IMG/VR virus record: IMGVR_UViG_3300008113_000014 | Location: 44,864-108,863 of that record | DNA: 64,000 nucleotides | Reading direction: 5' to 3' (one strand) | Source of the DNA: a virus | Part shown: positions 22,728 to 56,662 of the stretch, one piece after another | Numbering within the stretch: the stretch's first letter is position 1 | How the letters are laid out: each line of letters starts with the position of its first letter | The notes under the pieces: generated by a model | The model's database searches: none | Told to the model about the DNA's origin: nothing | The model's input: the letters and a program-made list of their open reading frames with translations, nothing else | Translations under genes and position numbers: made by a program

Positions 22728-24408
22728 ATACTATTATCGTCCATCTGAAGCAATTCTTGATGACACATTGATTAAGATTAAAGGCAATGCTGACACAATT
22801 CGCATTGTAGTACAAGCAGAGTCACGTGATGAAGCTCTTGAGTTTGCTAAAGGAATTATTAATATGGCAAATTGGGAATTGGATCACTCAGAAGAGTAAT
22901 CTTCCCAAAACTTGTCTCTGCCCATATTGTCTGTATTAGGCATATGGGTAGATTCTTTTTCAGAGCAATTTATGCATACCGTTTCTGAAAAAATTTGTGT
23001 TTGAAGGTTGTTTGAATCCTCAAATTCTAAGTATGCTTCTAGGTTATCTAAAAATCCCACTGCTTAGACCCCTTTAAAAAATTATTCTGCTTCTGGTTCT
23101 GACCTGTGTGAGTTTTTACATGTGCACTCTGTGCAGCATCTGACAGGTAGCTTTGGTGCAGGTTCTGTTGTATTTTCCATAGATTCAGTATATCACAATA
23201 TGGTGAAAATCTGAAAAAAATTTGATTTAGGCAAAATCTGAATATTTCTTATCTGTGTATGATACATACATAAAGAAAATAAATACAAAAAAAATAGTGA
23301 GCACACAAGATGAATGCCCACTACCTAGCTGGATCTACTGCCACCTTTTGTTTTAGGTGTAGTACCCTATTCGCATTTGCAAGGGTCTATGCGTGTAGTA
23401 CCCTCATCAAAAATAATGATGCCAGTATCTCCACACGCCTCGCATGTGTGTGCGTACATGGCACTTATCATTTATTTACCTTAATGTCCATGACATTGGC
23501 TGAAAACTTTTTAACCTTGCCTAATTCGCTTTCGTTTAGTGATGCGATGAGGTGGTCAATAGCCTTAATCTCATGGGCGATGTTATCTATTGAAATTAAC
23601 TTAGAGCCTTGCCAAATTGAGTATTTGATTTCCATAATTAGTTTTCTTCTTTCGCTAGTAGGTGAGAGTTATTGAGAGGGCGTGATGATGATGAGAACAT
23701 AGCCTCAATCTTAGCCTTATCTTTTTCACGCTGAATTGCATAGCGTTCTTGTTGTTCTTTTCTAATTCGTTCTAGTGTATTCATTTAATGAGTACCTTTC
23801 GTTTTTAACTGTTAGCGATTTGCTAACCTTTTGCTGACCTAGGTTATTTGCCTACTATGTAGGGCTCACTAGGATTTGTGTTACTATTTAATTGTTATAG
23901 GAGTATCCTATCACATACCCTGCCAAAAGTCAAGGCGACACGCCGTTGGCGTGGTGTGATATAGGTCACGCTCCAAGCGTGAAGCATAGGATAACGGCTA
24001 TCGCTACGCCTACAAAGGCTCCAATTAGTCCGTAAGCGACATTCTCATCTAGGAAATCTTGTAGTGCTGTAAATGGGTTCATGTTAGTGACCTTTCGTTT
24101 AGTAGTTATATTTTAACTATCTAATACTGCAAGTATAACATGGATACCTGTCAAAGTCAAGTCCTGACACGGCGTGTCGCATGTGATGTCGCTCACATCG
24201 CCTCGGGCGACTTGTCAAATCAACACGCCGATCATTTTAAGATTGTTATGAGATTGTTATAGTTTTCCCATAAATGTGACCTACATCTCATGTGATACGG
24301 CTCACAATGTCCGAATTGGTAGCATTTTGGATTAGACATTTGTCAGACCCCCATGCTACAATTACAGTATAAAGAAAAACAAGCGGTAAAGAAATCCGCT
24401 AAAGAAAG

Positions 24409-24594
24409 GTGGTCACTATGACTACACTAAACACACTATGCAAGTGGCATGAGCCTCTTGTTTCCGCTATCTCAGAAATTGGAGATGAGCAATTTACACT
24501 ATGCATGAATTGCGATAGCAACATTGAGCGTTACTACTATGATAGTGACCCTGAGCAATTTCCTACATGGACAGATTGGTATGTGACTAAATGA
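24409..24594 (+). CDS. Small Cys-containing early protein
   Basis: Downstream of promoter 24341 and AAGAAAGG RBS; CxxC. Confidence 0.55.
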   Translation: MVTMTTLNTLCKWHEPLVSAISEIGDEQFTLCMNCDSNIERYYYDSDPEQFPTWTDWYVTK

Positions 24595-24773
24595 ACGACA
24601 CTATGCAATTTATAGATGAGCAAGGCTTATGCGCTATGGATAACATTTGCGCTTTCTGCATAACACTATTTGACGGGTGGAATAGATTTTGCCCTAGATG
24701 TAAGGACTATAAGGGCGTTATGGCTCTCCCTGATTTTATCAATACCTATGGAAAGGACGGACTCTCTAAATGA
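24591..24773 (+). CDS. Small zinc-finger-like protein
   Basis: CAFC and CPRC pairs. Confidence 0.6.
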   Translation: MNDTMQFIDEQGLCAMDNICAFCITLFDGWNRFCPRCKDYKGVMALPDFINTYGKDGLSK

Positions 24774-26284
24774 GTACCTTTGTTAATCTCCCCTCAGTAT
24801 GTGGGGCAACATCTGCAAGCGTAGATGTGTATGACTTAGACCTTAACCCTCATGGGGTTATCTGTTGTGACAATTGCAAATCAATTGTGTTATGCCGTAA
24901 GGCTTGGGACTACCTATACAAGGAGGCTAAGTAATGCCAGTATTTAATTTTGAGTTATTTGTAGATGTAGAAGCAGATGATTTTGAGTCTGCCTTATCAT
25001 GGCTAAAGGCTATGCCACTAGAGAGACAACTAGATTTCCATGTCATTGACTATAAGCAATTGGAGGCTTAACAAATGAAAAAAAATGTTTTAATTAGTTT
25101 TGTAACTGAAGCAGACACAGACCTTCAAGCAGTTTTTAATTTGAATAAAGTTTTTGCTAAACTTAGCGAAAACGAATTAGAAAAATTTAATGCGTTTGAA
25201 GTTTTACCTGTTGAATAAATAAAGCCAAGATCGCAGAAATAAAAACTCTGCGATTTTTGCCTCGGGGAGCTGTGTGATGAGTATCACAAAAAATAATTCT
25301 ACGACACGCCCGAAAAGGTCCCCAATTTGTCAGTGGTACCTGCTAGAATTGCTAGTATAAACAAAAAGAAAGGTCGTTAAATAAATGACACTAGATGAAT
25401 ACAAGGCGCTTGTAGAAGCGCAACGCAAGGCAAGCACCTTGCAAGCCATGTCCCTACTAAAGAAAGGCTCAGACAAATGAGCACTTTTGATAGAATACTA
25501 AAAGAGCAACAAGAAAAAAGAATTGCTCAATCAATAAAAGATAAAGCGGTTATTGAAGCCATGTTCTCCAATAACAATCGCCCCCTTAACAATAATCATG
25601 AATTAAAGAAAGTAGAAAACTAATGAAAACTAATTTTGAGATTTCTCAACAGATAAACACTCTTGCTAAAAAGCACTATGGAGACATGGACTTAGCATGG
25701 TCATGGGGTTGCGCCCAAGCACTACTAACTACACCACAGTTAGAGTTAATTCTAGGAATACTATTAGAGAAGGAGCCAGATAATGCCAGTATTTAATTTT
25801 GACATTTCTGTTACCATTGAGGACGATAATTTTGAGTCTGCTTTATCATGGTTAAAAGTTATTCCATTGGAACGACTTGATTTTATTGTTGTTGATTATA
25901 CAGAATTGGAGTTAGACTAATGCTGGTTGTTTTAATTGCTATCACTTCATTTGCTTTTGTAATTTGGATGCATAACGGAGCATAATAAAAAAAGATCACA
26001 GAACTAAAAAGCTGTGATTTTTGCTCGGGCGTTTTCCACAGGCTGTGTATAACTTATGTGTTTAAGGTCACACAAAATCTTTCCCATTTTACGGCGTGTC
26101 GTTTTGACTTCCTGAAACTTATCTGGTATCCTTGTAGGTATAACAATTAAATAAAGATAAATCAGGCAGTGAGCCTAGCAAATAAATGTGACGAGTATCA
26201 CAGTGAGCCTAGCGAATAAATGCCAAGATTTGTCAGCCCCCCGTGATAGGATAGTCTTATCACTTAAAGAAAGGAAGTCTATAA

Positions 26285-26482
26285 ATGACTTACACTATAA
26301 CACTAGAAACCTTTAATGGTTCTACTAAAAAAATCAACCTTGCCTCTAAGGGTGCGGTTGCTCAATTCGTATCACAATACCCAACACAATTACCTGTTGG
26401 CGTATCTGTAAAAATCGCTTGCGATACTCTTGGAATAAGTGGCACACTTCGTGGCACTTCTACACTAACAAAAACAAACTAA
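26285..26482 (+). CDS. Hypothetical early protein
   Basis: Follows promoter 26231 and AAGGAAG RBS. Confidence 0.65.
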   Translation: MTYTITLETFNGSTKKINLASKGAVAQFVSQYPTQLPVGVSVKIACDTLGISGTLRGTSTLTKTN

Positions 26483-26501
26483 AGAATAGGAAATAAAATA
26501 A

Positions 26502-26705
26502 ATGAAAATTGAACACAATCTAAAATTCGTAACTGAATTTGCAGAGGGCCACCCTGTAACTGCAACAGTAATGGCACTTGATGAAAGCACTCGTATCCTT
26601 ATGCTAGAGTCAATGCTAAAAGATTTGGTAGGCTCTCGCCTGCAACCTATCCTTGATGAAATAAATGCTGGTGGGTCCTATGCAATTCTAAAGGTGGCCG
26701 AATAA
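26502..26705 (+). CDS. Hypothetical early protein
   Basis: RBS and operon context. Confidence 0.6.
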   Translation: MKIEHNLKFVTEFAEGHPVTATVMALDESTRILMLESMLKDLVGSRLQPILDEINAGGSYAILKVAE

Positions 26706-26905
26706 TGATGACTCGTAAAGACTATGTAAAAGTTGCCGAAATTCTTAGCAACTATTTTGCTACATCTGTTTTTGATGAACAAGGAGAAATTTTATTTGCT
26801 GATTTGGTAGATGAATTTTCTCTAATGTTTGAAACTGATAACCCAAGATTTGACTCTGACAGATTTGCTATTGCTTGCTATAAAGAATTGGAGATGTCAA
26901 ATTGA
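26705..26905 (+). CDS. Hypothetical early protein
   Basis: MTRKDY...DNPRFD..RF..AC pattern common in small phage proteins. Confidence 0.7.
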   Translation: MMTRKDYVKVAEILSNYFATSVFDEQGEILFADLVDEFSLMFETDNPRFDSDRFAIACYKELEMSN

Positions 26906-27057
26906 TTTTAGATACTGGAACACTAATCGCAATCGTAATTGCACTTGGCGGATCTTTAACAGTTATGTGTTTATTTTGGAAACAAAATATTGCACAACAA
27001 AAAGAAATTCGCAGATTACAAATTTTATTGCGAACTGAGCGACTAAAATAAAATAAA

Positions 27058-27087
27058 AGACCTGAGCATGTCTGTGCAAAACTGCTT
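27058..27087 (+). ncRNA. Mini H-type pseudoknot repeat, copy 1
   Basis: AGAC-CTGAGCAT-GTCT-gtgcaaaac-TGCTT. Confidence 0.55.
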
Positions 27088-27324
27088 GATCCTTTTAAAT
27101 AAAAAAAGCTCGGGGGTTTTTCCACAGGCCTTTGTGGATAACTTTACGTGGTTGTGATTTTTCTCACATTTGTTGAGCGTCTCATTATTTAAGACTACTC
27201 ACTAGTAGGTTGATAAATTATGATTAACAGGATAGACTTACATAGTAAGAAAAAATAAATAACCGAAATTTGTCAGACCCTAGTGGTAGGATAAATAAAT
27301 AACAACAAAGAAAGAGGTTGGCAA

Positions 27325-27537
27325 ATGTCAGCAAATGTCTATTCAATAGAAAACCTACTTGTAGGAAAAACTTATCACTCACGCACTTTAACAGGCGAAA
27401 TCATAGATGCAGAAAAGTCTGATGTCTTTTATGGCTCAGGCTTAGAAAGTTATCGTGTTCAGGTTCGCCCACACTATCCTTCAGTATTTAATCTAAAGGA
27501 CACTTATCGTATTCTATCAGTAAAGGTTGGAGAATAA
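27325..27537 (+). CDS. Hypothetical early protein
   Basis: Follows promoter 27271, GAGG RBS. Confidence 0.65.
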   Translation: MSANVYSIENLLVGKTYHSRTLTGEIIDAEKSDVFYGSGLESYRVQVRPHYPSVFNLKDTYRILSVKVGE

Positions 27538-27541
27538 ATAA

Positions 27542-27733
27542 ATGGGAAACTTACTAGACTTTTTGGTTGATTGTGTTGATTGCCATGATGAGGGTGTCCT
27601 CTTTTTTGGTAATGGTGGCGAGGAATACGACTCAGAATTTTGCGATTGCGCTAAAGGCGTGTCGCTTGAAAATGAATACTGTGCATGGTATGCTGAAAGT
27701 ATCATGAACGAAAACTATAAGGAGAATAACTAA
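27542..27733 (+). CDS. Small zinc-binding protein
   Basis: CVDCHDEG...FCDCAKG. Confidence 0.65.
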   Translation: MGNLLDFLVDCVDCHDEGVLFFGNGGEEYDSEFCDCAKGVSLENEYCAWYAESIMNENYKENN

Positions 27734-27951
27734 TGAACGAATACCTATACTCAGTTACTTGTACCTATGACTCAGATACCTCCACCACTTGGGTAGGGCG
27801 TTATAGTGACGCTTTATCTGCCGTTGAAAGTTATCAAAAGTTTATTGACCATGGACTTGCTAAAGAATACTCAACAATTAACTTGTCTGAACCTTCAGGC
27901 AAGATGCACACAAAAACTTTCTACAAAACAGGATTGGTGGTAACACGATAA
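27733..27951 (+). CDS. Hypothetical protein
   Basis: TAATG coupling, GGAG RBS. Confidence 0.65.
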   Translation: MNEYLYSVTCTYDSDTSTTWVGRYSDALSAVESYQKFIDHGLAKEYSTINLSEPSGKMHTKTFYKTGLVVTR

Positions 27952-28274
27952 TGGGACACAATACAGCGATTGACTTAGCAGAAAACATTGACATAAGCCT
28001 TGAACAGGCTATCGGTTATCACTTACAGGGTAATCACTACCCACCCGTACCGCTAAGCATGGTTCAGCCTTGCATTGAGGCGTTAGACGCTGCACGAGAA
28101 ATGGACGCCATGCGCCAGATTGAAATGCCTGAAGGCATAACCTATAAGGGCAAAACTCATGCACCAGCATGGGCTATCATTGAACAACACCACTTGGACG
28201 CTTGGTTGCCACAAGATGAGGCAGACTATTGGGAAGAAGATGCAGGCTATGAATCAGGATTAGGTTTAGAATAA
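27951..28274 (+). CDS. Hypothetical phage protein
   Basis: HLQGNHYPPVP...IIEQHHLDAW; coupled start. Confidence 0.7.
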   Translation: MGHNTAIDLAENIDISLEQAIGYHLQGNHYPPVPLSMVQPCIEALDAAREMDAMRQIEMPEGITYKGKTHAPAWAIIEQHHLDAWLPQDEADYWEEDAGYESGLGLE

Positions 28275-28348
28275 ATGAGTACTTTTTTTATTCCACACTC
28301 AAAGTATTGCGATTGCCCAGAGTGTTTAGACATGGAGGAACAGAATAA

Positions 28349-28582
28349 ATGAGTGCTACAATTATTGACATGGAACTTGTAAAAGCTGATTCTCTAACTG
28401 TTGATGCGTTAGAACTTGGCGATCTAATTGGTTATGGTGATGAGATTGTTGAAGTAACTTTTATTGAATGTGATTCAACGGGAGATAACTATGACATTCA
28501 AATTGTAAATGATTTTGGTGAAAAAGAAATTGTTCAGTTTGCATTTGATGAAGAAGTTGATTGGTACGTTTATTTAGATTGA
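28349..28582 (+). CDS. Hypothetical acidic protein
   Basis: GGAGG RBS; SH3-like beta pattern. Confidence 0.6.
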   Translation: MSATIIDMELVKADSLTVDALELGDLIGYGDEIVEVTFIECDSTGDNYDIQIVNDFGEKEIVQFAFDEEVDWYVYLD

Positions 28583-28808
28583 AAAACGCCCGAGGGGGCC
28601 CTGTGAGATTCATCACATTTACGAGATTTGATATTTTTCCCCATATCTGGTAAAATTATTACATGAAGAAAAATGCTGAGGAATTAAGACGCCTAATGGA
28701 ATTACGGCGATCTAATGCAGCCTCCGCTGTTCCAAATAAAAAAAAGTATGATAGAAAAAAATGTCAGTCCCTTATGCTAAAATTAAAGAAAGAAAGCGAG
28801 TAGCCACC

Positions 28809-29531
28809 ATGTCAAAATTACTTAGAAGCAAAGATAGGAAAGTAGCAAATGCAGTTACACCAAATGGAAAACAAGCAAGTATCGCCAACACTTTCGGATT
28901 ACCCGCAGGCAAGGCTTATTCATGTCCTGGAGCGACTAGCGTATGCGAGAGTGTTTGTTATGCTGGCAAGCTTGAAAAAGTATTCCCAACAGTAAAGAAA
29001 AACTTATTGCACAATTGGGAATTAGTTAAAGACGCAGACCATGACACTATTGAAGCATTGCTTGAAGACATGATTAGTGAGTTTATTGCAGACTGCAAAA
29101 AGAAAGACGCACCCATGCTATTCCGTATCCACTGGGACGGGGATTTCTTTAATGACACTTACACATTCGCATGGAAGCATGTCATTCTTAATCATCCTGA
29201 AATTCAATTCTGGGTTTATACAAGAGTTAAGTCTGCAGCGGTAATGCTTAAGGACATTGATAATCTATCTTTATACTATTCTACAGATAGTGAGAATAAG
29301 TCTATTGGCGTTACCCTGAAAAAAGATCATGGTATTCGTCTTGCATACCTTGCTAAGAATTTCTTAGTAGGACAAGCAGACATGAAAGAGATGATAGGCA
29401 AGGTAGGGGCTAAGTGTCCTGAGAATAAAAAGGCTATCCCACTTATCTCAACAAATGGTTCGGCTTGCGTTTCTTGCTCATTGTGTGTATACTCAAAGAG
29501 TGACATAGTATTTTCATCAAGTAAAAAGTAA
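28809..29531 (+). CDS. GP88-family (radical-SAM-like) protein
   Basis: FGLPAG...CPGATSVCESVCYA, FRIHWDGDF, FWVYTR, C-terminal CPE...CVSCSLC; start corrected to MSKLL. Confidence 0.75.
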   Translation: MSKLLRSKDRKVANAVTPNGKQASIANTFGLPAGKAYSCPGATSVCESVCYAGKLEKVFPTVKKNLLHNWELVKDADHDTIEALLEDMISEFIADCKKKDAPMLFRIHWDGDFFNDTYTFAWKHVILNHPEIQFWVYTRVKSAAVMLKDIDNLSLYYSTDSENKSIGVTLKKDHGIRLAYLAKNFLVGQADMKEMIGKVGAKCPENKKAIPLISTNGSACVSCSLCVYSKSDIVFSSSKK

Positions 29532-29719
29532 GGAGATAAATGGAAAGCCTATTTATCCTATTAGTAATGGGGTTATTAGTGTTTATGATTTACCAATAAG
29601 TGACTTACATCACACCCGTAAGCGTCTCAAATAGTGAGAAATACAAGAAATGGAGTTGAAAAATGTCAGTAGGAAATGTTATACTTAATACATACAACAA
29701 ACTAAAAAGGAGAAACAAC

Positions 29720-29884
29720 ATGACAGTAGCAAATACATACAAGGTAGGCGACCTCTACACATCACAGAAGTCAAAGGTAACAGGAACAATTCTTGAAATC
29801 TCACCTACTGCAAAGGACACAGTTCGTGTTAAGTTAGATGTTAATGGTAACACACGCTGGACAACATGGAAAGCGCAATCGTAA
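29720..29884 (+). CDS. Small SH3-like protein
   Basis: AAGGAG RBS before ATG 29720; YKVGD...G.I.EI. Confidence 0.6.
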   Translation: MTVANTYKVGDLYTSQKSKVTGTILEISPTAKDTVRVKLDVNGNTRWTTWKAQS

Positions 29885-29910
29885 TCTAACAAGCCAGTTA
29901 GATAGTAACT

Positions 29911-29940
29911 CAGACCTGAGCAAGTCTGCTAAAACTGCTC
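29911..29940 (+). ncRNA. Mini pseudoknot repeat, copy 2
   Basis: CAGAC-CTGAGCAA-GTCTG-ctaaaac-TGCTC. Confidence 0.6.
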
Positions 29941-30003
29941 ACACAAAATGTCAGACCTAACCCCTATACTATAAATAAACCACCAAAGAAAAGAGAAAAA
30001 CAC

Positions 30004-30426
30004 ATGGCACGACAAAAAGCAATCTCAGTAAAGATAGCAACACCAAAAGTAATCAAGGCACTAGAAACTGCACTAGCAAAGTTAGAAGCAGACTACGCAT
30101 CACAAGAAGCAAACGAGGCTAAGTATGAAAAGACTCGTAAGGCTTGGCTAAAAGAAATGCAAGACTACGCTATTGCTAACATCAAGAAGGCAGAGAACTT
30201 TCGCACCAACTATCGTTCATGGTCAAATAATCTTAACATTGACTTTGACTTAACAGTTAGCGAAAAGGATTTGCCTAAAGAGCCTGAGAAGGACTTTGAG
30301 ACAATTCATGTTCATAGTTATCGTGAGCAGAAAGAGGAAATCTCTAACGCAATTCGTATTCTAAAGATGACAGATGAGGAAACAGTTTCCACATCAACTT
30401 ATCAAGCGGTTGCTCGTTATCTGTAA
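30004..30426 (+). CDS. Hypothetical coiled-coil protein
   Basis: Follows promoter 29949. Confidence 0.75.
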   Translation: MARQKAISVKIATPKVIKALETALAKLEADYASQEANEAKYEKTRKAWLKEMQDYAIANIKKAENFRTNYRSWSNNLNIDFDLTVSEKDLPKEPEKDFETIHVHSYREQKEEISNAIRILKMTDEETVSTSTYQAVARYL

Positions 30427-30462
30427 ATAATTTGGGGGGCAACTTAAAGTCCTAAACCCAAA

Positions 30463-30552
30463 CAACCTAAGCAAGTTGCAAAACTGCTTCACTAAAGTTA
30501 CTGCCAGTGCTATAGCGAGGCAGACGTTCCTGAGCATGAATTGAAAAGGCTC
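30463..30552 (+). ncRNA. Mini pseudoknot repeat, copies 3 and 4
   Basis: CAAC-CTAAGCAA-GTTG-caaaac-TGCTT (30463-30489); GTTC-CTGAGCAT-GAAT-tgaaaag-GCTC (30526-30552). Confidence 0.55.
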
Positions 30553-30696
30553 ACTTTTTGCCCCCGAGCTCATGTGAATTTGATCACACCCTTTACGTAC
30601 CACCATTTAAGATCCCTGGATTTACGATTGGCATTTGTCAGTCCAACCTGCTAGAATTATATTAATATCAGAACAACAGAAAGAAGGAAGCCCCCA

Positions 30697-31194
30697 ATGG
30701 GACTAGACATGTACCTAAGTGCTAGAAAGCATTTTGAAAAAATCAACTGGCAAACACTACAGGCTAATGATGAATTATCTTACAATTCACCTGAAGCCGT
30801 ATATCCTAAGTTCAATGACCTAATGGCATTGACACAACTCACAAATGTTGCAACAGATATTTATGGAGCAGAAGTAACAGTTACTTGTGCCTACTGGCGC
30901 AAGGCTAATCAGATACACGCTTGGTTCGTAAAGAATGTTCAACATGATGTTGATAACTGCGGAGACTACTATGTCTCACAAGATAAACTAATAGAATTGC
31001 TTGCACTATGTAAGCATGCCCTAGCAACAAAAGACCCTAGCCTATTCCCACCACAAGCAGGGTTTTTCTTTGGTGGTACAGATATTGATGAATGGTATTG
31101 GCGTGACCTTACTGATACTATTAGTCAATTAGAGCGTATCTTTGCGCTACCAGAAATTGATAAGTTATCATTTTTTTATTCATCATCTTGGTAA
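30697..31194 (+). CDS. Conserved phage hypothetical protein
   Basis: MGLDMYL...YWRKANQIHAWF...LFPPQAGFFFG...FFYSSSW pattern. Confidence 0.8.
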   Translation: MGLDMYLSARKHFEKINWQTLQANDELSYNSPEAVYPKFNDLMALTQLTNVATDIYGAEVTVTCAYWRKANQIHAWFVKNVQHDVDNCGDYYVSQDKLIELLALCKHALATKDPSLFPPQAGFFFGGTDIDEWYWRDLTDTISQLERIFALPEIDKLSFFYSSSW

Positions 31195-31258
31195 TTGACA
31201 TTTGTCAGTGCCATACCCTATAATTAAACTAACCAACAAACAGAAAGAGGTAGCCCTC

Positions 31259-31696
31259 ATGGACCAGCAACAAATTCCACCAGTAGTAAAAACAGATAAT
31301 CACTACATGACACGAGAGTTTTTAGAAACTACTCTTGTACAAAACAAAACACGGATAGATGAATTAGAAAAGCATATCCAAGTCGTAACACAACGCTCAT
31401 ACGGCGAGGCTGCAGAGCGCAACCGTATGCGTACTGAAATGCAAGAGTGGACTTTTGAAGCAATTGAAGCAGGCACACTCAATGAGTCAGAAGGACAAGA
31501 AATTGCTGACATCTGTGGCTTTGAACTTACAAAAGAATTTGAAGTTGAAGTTACAGTTATGTATTCAGTTACAGTGAATGCACGAAATGAAGAAGAAGCA
31601 CAAAATGCAATTCACGATATTGATTTTGATACTGTAGATTACAATTCAGATTCAATTCAATACCTATCATCTTCAATTGATAGAGTAGATATTTAG
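31259..31696 (+). CDS. Hypothetical acidic protein
   Basis: GAGG RBS before ATG 31259; V.ARNEEEA motif. Confidence 0.7.
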   Translation: MDQQQIPPVVKTDNHYMTREFLETTLVQNKTRIDELEKHIQVVTQRSYGEAAERNRMRTEMQEWTFEAIEAGTLNESEGQEIADICGFELTKEFEVEVTVMYSVTVNARNEEEAQNAIHDIDFDTVDYNSDSIQYLSSSIDRVDI

Positions 31697-31711
31697 TAGG
31701 GGGCTACTAAT

Positions 31712-31738
31712 GGACCTGAGCATGTCCTTAAACTGCTT
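31712..31738 (+). ncRNA. Mini pseudoknot repeat, copy 5
   Basis: GGAC-CTGAGCAT-GTCC-ttaaac-TGCTT. Confidence 0.55.
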
Positions 31739-31917
31739 TATTTTTATTTATGCCGTTGCATAAAAATGCAGCTCGGGGGCGTGACCAAGATCACACTGTG
31801 TTTTACGACACATTAAAAAAATGTCCATTTTTTCCCATTTTCAACTATCCTGATTTGCATTTGTCAGACCCATTGTGTATAATTAAATTAACTACAAAAG
31901 AAAAGGAAAAATAACTC

Positions 31918-32934
31918 ATGGCACATGAACTAGAAACACAAAATGGCGTAGCAAGTTTTGCCTCATTTCGTGAACCTGCTTGGCATGGATTGGGTACTGT
32001 ATTCACAGAGGAAAAAACCACAAAAGAAATGTTAGATTTGGCTAATCTTTCTAATTGGAATGTTCGTCTTGAGGATTTGGAAACCCCTTCACATTTAACA
32101 AGCGACAAAAACTATCAGTATGTTTTGCGTACTAACCCTACAGATACAACACAGACAGACATTTTAGGTGTCGTTGGTGAGCGTTATCATGTTATGCAAA
32201 ACGAGGATTTATTCTCATTTGGCGATAACATTTTAGATGGTGGTGGTCGTTGGGAAACGGCTGGCTCAATCAAGGGTGGTCGTGTCGTATTTGGTGCGTT
32301 AGCACTAGAGCGTGAAACTATTCTTGACCCTAATGGTGTTGCAGATAAGGTAAAGACTTATTTGCTCATCAATACATCACATGACGGCTCAATCGCTATT
32401 CAAGCAAGCATAACACCTGTTCGTGTTGTGTGCGCTAACACTCTTAATCTTGCGCTTAACACTACAAAAAAGAAAAATGGCGTTAAGCAATCTTTCAAGA
32501 TACGCCATACACAAACTGCAAGCGGTAAGGTTGCCGTTGCTCGTGAAACTCTTGGGCTTGCTCATAAGTACATGGACTCTTTTGACCTCATGGCTAAGGC
32601 TATGATTGAAAAAGAAATCAATGCTACACAATTCAATGACATCATTTTGGCTGCCTATCCAAAGCCTGAAAAGGACTCTAAGGGTGCTTTCAAGAAATGG
32701 GAAAACAAGGTAGATGTTATTAACGACATTTACACAGGCGAGTTTAACGGCATGATTGCTGGTAACGCTTGGGGTGCTTTCAATGCACTAACTGAACGCC
32801 TTGATTGGTATCGTTCTGCTCGTGGTGGTTCTAACGAATCTATCCTTGCAAGCGCAAGCGGATTTGACCCTGCTATTAACGCAGAAAAAAATCGTTTGCT
32901 AAAAGTTGTGCAAAATGTTTTGCAAATTGCATAA
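31918..32934 (+). CDS. DUF932 / TIGR03299-family protein
   Basis: MAHELE...REPAWHGLG...LGVVGERY..QN...ETAGS..GG...SHDGS...TPVRVVCANTL...GNAWGAFNALTE. Confidence 0.9.
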   Translation: MAHELETQNGVASFASFREPAWHGLGTVFTEEKTTKEMLDLANLSNWNVRLEDLETPSHLTSDKNYQYVLRTNPTDTTQTDILGVVGERYHVMQNEDLFSFGDNILDGGGRWETAGSIKGGRVVFGALALERETILDPNGVADKVKTYLLINTSHDGSIAIQASITPVRVVCANTLNLALNTTKKKNGVKQSFKIRHTQTASGKVAVARETLGLAHKYMDSFDLMAKAMIEKEINATQFNDIILAAYPKPEKDSKGAFKKWENKVDVINDIYTGEFNGMIAGNAWGAFNALTERLDWYRSARGGSNESILASASGFDPAINAEKNRLLKVVQNVLQIA

Positions 32935-32941
32935 CTAAAAA

Positions 32942-32969
32942 AAATCCTGAGCAAGATTTAAAACTGCTC
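32942..32969 (+). ncRNA. Mini pseudoknot repeat, copy 6
   Basis: AAATC-CTGAGCAA-GATTT-aaaac-TGCTC, 4 nt upstream of tRNA-Asp. Confidence 0.6.
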
Positions 32970-32973
32970 GCAA

Positions 32974-33047
32974 GGTTCCATAGATCAATTGGTTAGATCG
33001 CTACCCTGTCACGGTAGAGGCTACGGGTTCAAGTCCCGTTGGAATCG
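32974..33047 (+). tRNA. tRNA-Asp (GTC)
   Basis: Acceptor GGTTCCA/TGGAATC, anticodon arm CTACC-ctGTCac-GGTAG, T arm GGTTCAAGTCC. Confidence 0.93.
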
Positions 33048-33155
33048 CAAGCTTAAGTGGGCCCCGAGGAAATTAGTACAAAACGGACATTTAAGAAACT
33101 ATATAAATAATCTCAGAAAATTTAATTACGACAGACTTGCTTTTTTCCCAGTTTT

Positions 33156-44614: not shown

Positions 44615-45739
44615 CTATAAGCGATTGATCTGCTTGTTTATAAACTCCAAGAATTTACCAGTAATTAGTGCAAACCCTAGCTCAGGCTTAGCATTAACAC
44701 ATTCTGGACTGACTATATACTTTGCCCACTCCTTTACAGATGCCTTGTTCTTGCCTGCTGTATCTGCTAAAAGGTAGGATACAATCCCTAGAGGGTATGC
44801 TCCAGCCTCTTTGGTAGAGTAGTCGTAGGTAAGTATATTGTTTGAGTCTATTGAGGCTTCTCCAAGGAATGCTGATACATTTGCGCTATTAGGCTCAACA
44901 AAGTTACCAGAAGCATTTCCTATGTTTGCCACCTTAAGGTTAAAGAACTTGGCAAAAGAAACCTCTGCATATGTAATAGAATACTTAGTCTTTGATGCAA
45001 GTGTTGCTACACCCTGTGACTGATTTGCTCCAGAGATTCTTCCTATGTTATTTACATCATTAATGTTATTTGGAAATGATGTTGAAAATGAATCAGAGAC
45101 GGGCTTAGTCCATGTATTAGGAGAAAAGGCCTTCATATATCTAACAAAATTATTAGTTGTGCCAGAGTTATCTAGTCTAAAAATAACTTTAATTTTTTGG
45201 TTTGGCATAGTGTATACAATGCTTTTGGTTGACGTTCTTAATACTACTGGGCTGCCAGCCTTATCTTTAATTAGATTACCAGTTGCATCTTTCTTATATA
45301 CTACCTCTTTAATTTTTCTATTGTTGTCAGCCTTAATAGCAGGATCATTCCACATTGTTATTTCTCCCGCAAAAATCTTAGCGACTGTAGTTGATGATAG
45401 ATAAACCTGTCTGTTACCTGGCAGGTTGTGCATAACGGCAATAGGTGCTGCAACTACTGGAATATGAATAATTGATGGCTTCTTAGTTGATGCAGTATGA
45501 GCTGAGTCTGAAAACCAGAAATCACCAATGCCTTTGTCAGATGAGGTCTTGCCAGCACCAGAACCGTTGGCTGAGTATGTTACTAAATTGCCTGTGTTCC
45601 TAGCATAAGATGATCTGCATTCGTCAATGAGGTTGGCTGGGAAAGATGCACCATTGCCAACAATATTTTCTGCTGCAAAGGCTGGGGTAGAAATAGATAG
45701 AGCAGCAACTACTGCCATTACGATAAGTTTAATTCTCAT
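44615..45739 (-). CDS. pstS: Phosphate ABC transporter substrate-binding protein
   Basis: Signal peptide; G.GASFP, Y...GSGAG, DF..SD, IFAGEITMWNDP.I, R.D.SGTT, YPLGIVSY. Confidence 0.92.
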   Translation of the reverse strand: MRIKLIVMAVVAALSISTPAFAAENIVGNGASFPANLIDECRSSYARNTGNLVTYSANGSGAGKTSSDKGIGDFWFSDSAHTASTKKPSIIHIPVVAAPIAVMHNLPGNRQVYLSSTTVAKIFAGEITMWNDPAIKADNNRKIKEVVYKKDATGNLIKDKAGSPVVLRTSTKSIVYTMPNQKIKVIFRLDNSGTTNNFVRYMKAFSPNTWTKPVSDSFSTSFPNNINDVNNIGRISGANQSQGVATLASKTKYSITYAEVSFAKFFNLKVANIGNASGNFVEPNSANVSAFLGEASIDSNNILTYDYSTKEAGAYPLGIVSYLLADTAGKNKASVKEWAKYIVSPECVNAKPELGFALITGKFLEFINKQINRL

Positions 45740-56386: not shown

Positions 56387-56662
56387 TTAGGAGGCTTTAG
56401 ATGTCAAACGAATATATGTCCTTATTCTGTGACAATTGGCACATACTACTTCGCATTTTGCTATCTCTTTTTTAATGGCTGCCCACGAAAATCCATCATG
56501 AATCATTCTAGATACGTTGTATTTTTTATCTTTTAGATGATCAAAATCTAAGACTATTGGATTAGTTAATCCACAGTCTGCACACCCAGAGTTTTGTTTT
56601 ATTTCTGAGAGTCTTTTTTTTAACTGTTGCTTATTGTAATGTTCTAACTCTTTGTTAGTCAT
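56387..56662 (-). CDS. Small HNH-like nuclease
   Basis: CADCG...LDFDH...EIAKCEVVCANCHRIRT. Confidence 0.85.
   Translation of the reverse strand: MTNKELEHYNKQQLKKRLSEIKQNSGCADCGLTNPIVLDFDHLKDKKYNVSRMIHDGFSWAAIKKEIAKCEVVCANCHRIRTYIRLTSKAS

Follow-up and report, generated by a model that had tools for sequence, protein, structure and literature searches.

A short sequence pattern of 27 to 30 nucleotides (nt) recurs six times in a 64,000-nt stretch of viral DNA (referred to here as the window), which is the right-hand 64 kb of the 108,863-bp IMG/VR record IMGVR_UViG_3300008113_000014 (37% G+C). The question raised by this locus is whether the pattern encodes a structured RNA and, if so, what that RNA does. 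The original prediction, made from the window alone, was that each copy folds into an H-type pseudoknot preserved by compensatory base changes. That much is borne out, because both helices covary across 134 distinct copies. It had also been suggested that the element might be a nuclease-blocking 3' cap, a processing signal, a small aptamer, or a decoy for a host protein. On balance, we favor a role as a 3'-end cap or cistron boundary that would block 3'-to-5' exonucleases.

We read the region from 26900 to 33100. All six elements are where the original prediction placed them, on the + strand between 27058 and 32969. They are listed here with the tRNA gene that follows the last of them; bit scores of the copies are from a covariance model described below.

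27058-27087, + strand: copy 1; stem 1 AGAC/GTCT; loop CTGAGCAT; L3 linker GTGCAAAAC; stem 2 GAGCA/TGCTT; 37.3 bits; 6 nt past the stop codon at 27049-27051.
29911-29940, + strand: copy 2; stem 1 CAGAC/GTCTG; loop CTGAGCAA; L3 linker CTAAAAC; stem 2 GAGCA/TGCTC; 41.6 bits; 26 nt past the stop codon at 29884.
30463-30489, + strand: copy 3; stem 1 CAAC/GTTG; loop CTAAGCAA; stem 2 AAGCA/TGCTT (G-C changed to A-U); 34.1 bits; 36 nt past the stop codon at 30426.
30526-30552, + strand: copy 4; stem 1 GTTC/GAAT; loop CTGAGCAT; tail AAAAGGCTC, with A.G at the last stem 2 pair; 32.0 bits.
31712-31738, + strand: copy 5; stem 1 GGAC/GTCC; loop CTGAGCAT; L3 linker TTAAAC; stem 2 GAGCA/TGCTT; 38.0 bits; 15 nt past the stop codon at 31696.
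32942-32969, + strand: copy 6; stem 1 AAATC/GATTT; loop CTGAGCAA; stem 2 GAGCA/TGCTC; 41.7 bits; 7 nt past the stop codon of a DUF932 gene (31918-32934).
32974-33048, + strand: tRNA-Asp(GTC); Rfam tRNA match, 68 bits.

The copies share one design: a 4- to 5-bp stem of free sequence with a C-G closing pair, an 8-nt loop CT(G/A)AGCA(A/T), the return strand, a linker, and TGCT(C/T). Stem 1 pairs in every copy as had been claimed, with one G.U pair in copy 4. The linker ends in AAAAC, except for AAAC in copy 5 and AAAA in copy 4. Pairing of the loop with the tail held for GAGCA with TGCTC or TGCTT and for the single AAGCA with TGCTT; the GGCTC of copy 4 makes 4 bp plus the A.G. One earlier claim needed a small correction, because all copies had been said to lie just after stop codons. 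Five of them do, each behind an ORF of the + strand, but copy 4 is 36 nt after copy 3. The tRNA-Asp does begin 4 nt past the end of copy 6, as had been noted.

To scan the window, we used a covariance model made from 37 distinct copies, with filters off. It matched these six elements only (32 to 42 bits, E values of 5e-10 to 3e-7), and the next-best match scored 12.4 bits. A relaxed regular expression found no further copy in the whole 108,863-bp genome. The 8-mer CCTGAGCA by itself was not enriched. The signal resides in the composite structure and not in this 8-mer.

We then looked at the fold beyond the window. A pattern that fixed the loop and tail alone matched 112 IMG/VR contigs, and the bases flanking the loop could pair, with varied sequences, in nearly all of them. 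A covariance model found 163 matches in 100 of those 112 loci, often two to six per locus, and a looser custom scan recovered loop and tail variants. In a scan of one genome per prokaryotic species, about 80 of the 125 matches listed had a proper stem 1, and about 30 had the closing pair alone, which is the chance expectation. The resulting alignment of 134 copies spans uncultured phages, cultured phages, and metagenome-assembled genomes (MAGs) of many phyla. Its consensus is a 4- to 5-bp stem 1 closed by C-G, a loop CUGAGCAW, an A-rich linker ending in AAAC, and a 3' strand UGCUY that pairs with the GAGCA of the loop. Stem 2 has 5 to 6 bp, and the second loop (L2) is a single column, position 14, which is A or U and rarely C. 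Sequence conservation stops 1 to 2 nt beyond stem 2.

In this alignment, 93.2% of the cells expected to pair did so, compared with 78% in column shuffles and 23 to 38% when the 3' partners were slid, although selection of the copies for at least four of five stem 2 pairs inflates the percentage paired. Changes on both sides of a pair were found at all four stem 1 pairs and at three of the six stem 2 pairs. Two stem 1 pairs were intact in all 134 copies, and each of them occurred as four or five different types of base pair. Within stem 2, G9-C38 was replaced by A-U in 12 copies and by G.U in 28; A10-U37 was G-C in 10 copies, G.U once, and unpaired in none; and C12-G35 was U-A in 4 copies and U.G in 15. 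These double changes are not an artifact of selection, because A9 or G10 variants with a consensus tail would have passed the filter, and that combination was almost never seen. The G.U pairs are frequent, and therefore the constraint acts on RNA of the knot's own strand. The pseudoknot fold is thus well supported by covariation. The A-rich linker is predicted to form minor-groove triples with stem 1.

Three smaller points concern the sequence itself. First, a tail AAAAGGCYC in place of AAACUGCUC recurs in window copy 4 and at loci L018, L026, L100, L121, L225, and L226. It turns the last stem 2 pair into A.G, and it arose or persists in several lineages. Second, the element could have been a mimic of a tRNA acceptor stem carrying a 3' ACCA. 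ACC follows stem 2 in 16 of 84 freshwater relatives and is lineage specific, because it is absent from the bacterial set, so the idea was rejected. Third, a double-stranded DNA operator (an inverted repeat, TGAGCA...TGCTCA) was also rejected. Against it stand a spacing that varies between 11 and over 20 nt, the covariation of stem 1, and the presence of G.U pairs.

The knot is widely distributed. Carriers include uncultured freshwater phages related to the window phage, as well as cultured phages of Mycobacterium (Labelle), Synechococcus, Paracoccus, Vibrio, Erwinia, Bacillus, Enterococcus, and Prevotella (Lak); cyanophage S-RIM4 is one of the cultured carriers. In Labelle, the knot spans 56437-56471, 8 nt past the stop codon of gene 85, and in S-RIM4 it spans 45609-45643. 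Among the matches listed, knots were also carried by contigs assigned to Saccharibacteria, Lachnospiraceae, Lactobacillaceae, Polynucleobacter, Calothrix, Omnitrophota, Thermodesulfobacteriota, Planctomycetes, and Methanobrevibacter. A megablast search of the region against cultured phages gave no match, and neither did a BLAST search of the knot-plus-hammerhead module (see below) against phages. A tblastn search with the DUF932 protein found only distant actinophage homologues (approximately 53% identity), and Streptomyces phage Jay2Jay, which carries one of these, has no knot copy.

The original prediction could not assign the element to a family, and this still stands. Rfam 15 run over the window at gathering thresholds matched tRNA only. 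With the threshold relaxed to an E value of ≤10, the 26900-33100 region gave the tRNA plus two chance matches away from the knots and none on them. In 35 further loci, Rfam matched only tRNAs, hammerheads, and one DUF2800 RNA, leaving the knot unmatched. Full-text literature searches that covered phage H-type pseudoknots and hammerhead contexts yielded no published description of the motif. The knot belongs to a large and apparently undescribed RNA family.

We scored gene placement in 227 distinct contexts from the nearest open reading frames (ORFs) flanking the knot, counting only those of 90 codons or more. The upstream ORF shared the strand of the knot in 146 of 158 assignable cases and was on the opposite strand in the other 12. 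The knot separated a gene from a convergent neighbor in 26 contexts and divergent genes in 5. Furthermore, the distance from the upstream stop codon to the knot clusters at 5 to 30 nt. Therefore, the knot belongs to the 3' end of the upstream gene and not to the leader of the downstream one. The upstream genes themselves are diverse (n = 125). They include Hsp20 (12 cases), DUF932 (9 cases, one being the window gene at 31918-32934), HslV-like proteins (7 cases), ArdA/ArdC antirestriction proteins, head proteins, and ribonucleotide reductase. No partner protein family recurs beside the knot among the upstream genes examined.

More specific information came from what follows the knot. A tRNA starts 2 to 7 nt past it in eight distinct contexts, including window copy 6 (Asp, Glu, Leu, and one more). 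After those eight, the next nearest downstream tRNA is 75 nt from a knot. Of the 117 tRNAs across these loci, not one has its end in the 200 nt preceding a knot of its own strand. Two MAG contigs show the knot leading directly into a type III hammerhead ribozyme; Rfam Hammerhead_3 scored the two hammerheads of L150 at 50.5 bits (above the family cutoff) and 41.2 bits. A pattern that joined the knot tail to a hammerhead core matched 24 IMG/VR contigs, and a complete knot was present in 22 of them. Those 22 knots have varied stems, four AAGCA/TGCTT pairs, several GAGTA loops, and two closing pairs flipped to G-C. An Rfam scan of 20 hammerhead loci at gathering thresholds gave no match, because these hammerheads score below the family cutoff of 48.5 bits. 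A scan by E value recovered them, with matches of 1e-6 to 8e-3 at the knot-adjacent positions of L245, L238, L244, and L250. Several contigs hold two knot-hammerhead modules.

The spacing is tight. Stem III of the ribozyme usually begins 0 to 1 nt past the knot (approximately 8 nt in L235, L248, and L252), and the GUC or GUA cleavage site is 5 to 13 nt behind it. The 28-nt sequence of window copy 6 is identical to the copy in L235 and L252, yet a tRNA-Asp follows it in the window and a hammerhead follows it there. In all, the knot stands directly 5' of a defined cleavage site in 8 tRNA contexts and at least 22 hammerhead contexts. This coupling is new evidence, and it points to a specific mechanism. 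After cleavage just 3' of the knot by one or the other of two unrelated cutters, the upstream RNA would have the knot as its final structure, followed by a tail of 2 to 13 nt.

The same arrangement bears on two other explanations. One is that the knot closes early units as a noncanonical transcription terminator or as a pause signal. The window knots do occupy the places where terminators are expected; a scan found no canonical intrinsic terminator after any of the six. T-rich runs follow some copies. However, tRNAs that start 2 to 7 nt downstream, and hammerheads that start 0 to 1 nt or in a few cases approximately 8 nt downstream, require the polymerase to read through. Indirectly, this indicates that the knot is no efficient terminator. 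RNA-library contigs of relatives that bridge copy 2 (see below) are a weak argument in the same direction. We consider termination very improbable. The other explanation is a folding insulator that stops the upstream mRNA from mispairing with the tRNA or ribozyme that follows, which would fit the direct abutment of these RNAs. However, approximately 85% of unbiased contexts have no structured RNA downstream, and in the window only one of the six copies has one. This makes an insulating role improbable.

The reading that we favor is a 3' cap, and it can be set out as follows. The 27- to 30-nt pseudoknot would be transcribed within early mRNAs, in the 3' untranslated stretch of a gene, and RNA polymerase would read across it. 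Cleavage of the transcript would follow a few bases past the knot, with RNase P acting at a downstream tRNA and the hammerhead ribozyme acting in other phages. Elsewhere, the cut would presumably be made by other endonucleases, or the end would be formed by exonucleolytic trimming. For copy 6, RNase P cleavage at the 5' end of tRNA-Asp would make the upstream RNA end 4 nt past the knot. The compact knot, ending 2 to 13 nt from the new 3' end, would then stop 3'-to-5' exonucleases, stabilize the upstream message, and mark the cistron boundary. When PNPase or RNase II meets a stable structure, it stalls several nucleotides 3' of it. To engage, RNase R needs a single-stranded 3' tail about seven nucleotides long or longer. 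A compact pseudoknot whose A-rich strand occupies the groove of stem 1 is probably of a kind that resists unwinding. Exonuclease blocking is what we infer from the covarying fold, the placement after genes, and the adjacency to cleavage devices. The reading fits the window, in which five copies close early units and copy 6 precedes tRNA-Asp. Three or four of the window copies have the next promoter at most 150 nt downstream, with no canonical terminator between. The cap or processing option, named first in the original prediction, gains independent support from the tRNA 5' ends and hammerheads directly downstream of the knot in other genomes.

Several observations weigh against a cap. Among 229 contexts, 131 had none of the four downstream neighbors that we scored, and a 3' end there would need other nucleases or trimming. 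A canonical terminator hairpin, which would already protect a 3' end, lies within 45 nt downstream of 11 copies, where a cap looks redundant. Most of the hammerhead cases came from a pattern that required a hammerhead, and only 3 are free of that bias, so the frequency of hammerheads among all knots cannot be inferred from them. Conservation of the loop and linker across phyla seems to exceed what a mere roadblock would need, and a ligand or a protein could be involved. Metatranscriptome contigs from four lake-water runs could also be mapped on the region; they represent relatives (90 to 99% identity), with DNA carry-over possible. They show only that relatives of the region occur in RNA libraries. 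Two studies gave contigs ending at 29910, 1 nt short of copy 2, and two others gave contigs that bridge it. Assembled contigs cannot show RNA ends, and the pattern at copy 2 speaks neither for nor against a cap. Finally, in 57 of the 229 contexts a Shine-Dalgarno sequence plus start codon lies within 60 nt downstream, inside operons and with no cleavage device visible.

These last contexts, and the usual position of the knot shortly behind a stop codon, would suit a two-way bulkhead in polycistronic RNA. Such an insulator would act against processes that run 5' to 3' (scanning by RNase E, RNase J, trailing ribosomes) and also against 3' exonucleases, so that neighboring cistrons decay and are translated independently. 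However, a two-way device does not account for the asymmetry of placement: the convergent contexts outnumber the divergent ones, and knots occur before tRNAs and never after them. Both features suggest that the knot serves the 3' end of the upstream unit rather than shielding the downstream one. We would give the bulkhead a fairly small chance.

The conserved unpaired bases also need an explanation. At C7, U8, and the linker AAAC, there is little or no variation among the 134 copies from many phyla, and the stem 2 sequence is strongly preferred despite its ability to covary. These bases may reflect tertiary contacts. They might instead be read by a protein, in which case the knot would be a binding site or decoy for a conserved partner (a host RNA chaperone, a ribosomal protein, a defense nuclease, or a phage factor) that recognizes C-CU...W...AAAC. 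However, the genes upstream of the knot are varied, with no family recurring beside it, and a host range from Saccharibacteria to Methanobrevibacter would demand a nearly universal partner. A protein partner therefore has only a small chance of being the explanation.

Invariant junction bases would also be expected of a small-molecule aptamer, and the knot resembles one riboswitch class in particular. The preQ1-I riboswitch has an H-type aptamer with an A-rich 3' linker ending in AAAAC and a ligand-pairing C in L2, and it is found in the leaders of queuosine or preQ1 genes, where P2 sequesters the Shine-Dalgarno sequence or forms a terminator. The knot and preQ1-I (RF00522) have in common a small H-type pseudoknot, a short stem 1, pairing of the loop with the 3' tail, and a linker rich in A that ends in AAAAC before stem 2. 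However, no Rfam riboswitch model, including that of preQ1-I, matched the knot. Its L2 is 1 nt, an A or U and not a ligand-reading C, and its stem 2 is 5 to 6 bp, whereas in preQ1-I L2 has several nucleotides and P2 has 3 to 4 bp. With these dimensions, the knot should be stable without a ligand. Furthermore, it lies downstream of genes (146 versus 12), beside Hsp20, DUF932, HslV, and ArdA genes and not in queuosine gene leaders, the genes that follow it are unrelated, and stem 2 overlaps neither a ribosome-binding site nor a terminator. A ligand-binding role is quite improbable. Nothing here favors the aptamer and decoy options of the original prediction.

In size, the knot resembles the luteovirus frameshift pseudoknots, such as the 28-nt element of beet western yellows virus. 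It has the same H-type topology and an A-rich loop that probably lies in the stem 1 minor groove, and it occurs close behind stop codons, which raised the question of recoding, either −1 frameshifting or stimulation of stop codon readthrough. However, the knot lies behind the stop codon and has no slippery site or overlapping frame. The 30 nt before each of the six window copies hold no XXXYYYZ heptamer, no frame is open for more than 52 codons across them, and the spacing from the stop codon varies from 6 to 36 nt. Recoding is hardly credible. The pistol ribozyme (RF02679) is phage associated and likewise pairs a hairpin loop with a downstream strand after an A-rich linker, but the knot has no P2/P3 or G-U cleavage site linker, and the pistol covariance model matched nothing in the window or the 35 loci.

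The 3' cap has parallels among RNA stabilizers. RNase III sites of phage T7 and bacterial repetitive extragenic palindromic (REP) or terminator hairpins act as 3' stabilizers. Like the knot, T7 RNase III sites and REP hairpins are structures between cistrons that are kept at a processed 3' end, where they slow 3' exonucleases. However, they are long simple hairpins with lineage-specific sequences, whereas the knot is a sequence-conserved pseudoknot common to many phyla. A further functional analogy is eukaryotic. The 3' end of the MALAT1 and MEN-beta RNAs is reportedly a triple helix, the ENE, followed by the tRNA-like mascRNA that RNase P cuts. In both systems, a compact A-rich structure of triplex type sits right before an RNase P site (here in the eight tRNA contexts) and would be left as a protective 3' end. 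The differences are also clear. MALAT1 uses a U-rich stem that clamps a genomic A-tract, whereas the knot is a 27- to 30-nt H-type pseudoknot with no sequence relationship to it. The knot is phage or bacterial, is also paired with hammerheads, and mostly has no visible cleavage device.

A broader proposal follows the same line. The knot might be a universal, self-contained, exoribonuclease-resistant 3' cap in phages of most bacterial phyla and in some archaeal viruses. Interchangeable cutters (RNase P at tRNAs or tRNA-like minihelices, and hammerheads) would divide long transcripts into individually stabilized messages, as a prokaryotic counterpart of the MALAT1 triple-helix/mascRNA module. 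We offer this tentatively and rate its chances at somewhat below even. If it is true, then natural phage hammerheads gain a biological role. Even the simpler cap, if right, would place this 27-nt module among the most widespread cis-acting RNA elements of phages. Phages could then stabilize and separate messages without long hairpins, and many of the hammerheads and solitary tRNAs scattered in their genomes would have a function. A very small and portable 3'-end stabilizer might also be useful in synthetic biology.

Some neighbors of the knot were unusual. At L244 (1736-1755, − strand), a plain GC hairpin, GGGAGC-UAAC-GCUCCC, occupies the knot's usual place directly before a second hammerhead. 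At L188 (5407-5592), a DUF2800 RNA (Rfam RF02960, 156 bits) begins 2 nt past a string that resembles the knot but has a poor stem 1. At L084 (approximately 1479-1509), we recognized by eye a tRNA-like minihelix, with an acceptor-like stem plus a T-arm (GGGTTCAATTCCC), 2 nt past the knot; ARAGORN made no call on it.

The loop contains a UGA, and we considered whether this is generally used as a stop codon. ORFs ended there in 86 cases, compared with 66 and 67 in control frames, so there is no general excess and the idea was rejected. One small-peptide family is an exception. In MAGs of several anaerobe phyla (L120, L132, L139, L158, L169, L176, L184, L187, L212, and L219), a tiny ORF of 20 to 26 amino acids, MKRFxxPRxAHCxEGC...S, stops at the UGA in the knot loop, and at several of these loci a terminator follows. 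The ORF had no NCBIfam match. Perhaps a cellular small-peptide gene makes use of the same knot here.

Within the window, the knots lie in an early-type region at 24 to 34 kb that has about ten promoter-like boxes, TGTCAG-N10-TAnnnT (ten on the + strand, 24341-31862). The box at 29949 begins 8 nt past copy 2. About ten perfect or near-perfect CRP/GlxR-type boxes, TGTGA-N6-TCACA, occur between 23955 and 38062, most of them just upstream of a TGTCAG-N10-TAnnnT box. From this pattern, the early promoters appear to be controlled by a host regulator of the cAMP receptor type. G-rich boxes, GCTCGGGGG or CCCGAGGGG, are located at 27109, 28589, 30568 (− strand), and 31772, between a knot or gene end and a CRP-like box. 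The GCUC of a G-rich box could pair with GAGC of the knot loop as an alternative to the proximal tail.

Finally, RNA-library contigs of related phages have deletions or replacements with a start or an end at a knot boundary. The joints are 31711>31775, 31715>31843, and 32825>32940, which fall within 31711-31843 and 32825-32940 of the window. This hints that the knot repeats mark mosaic junctions between gene cassettes.

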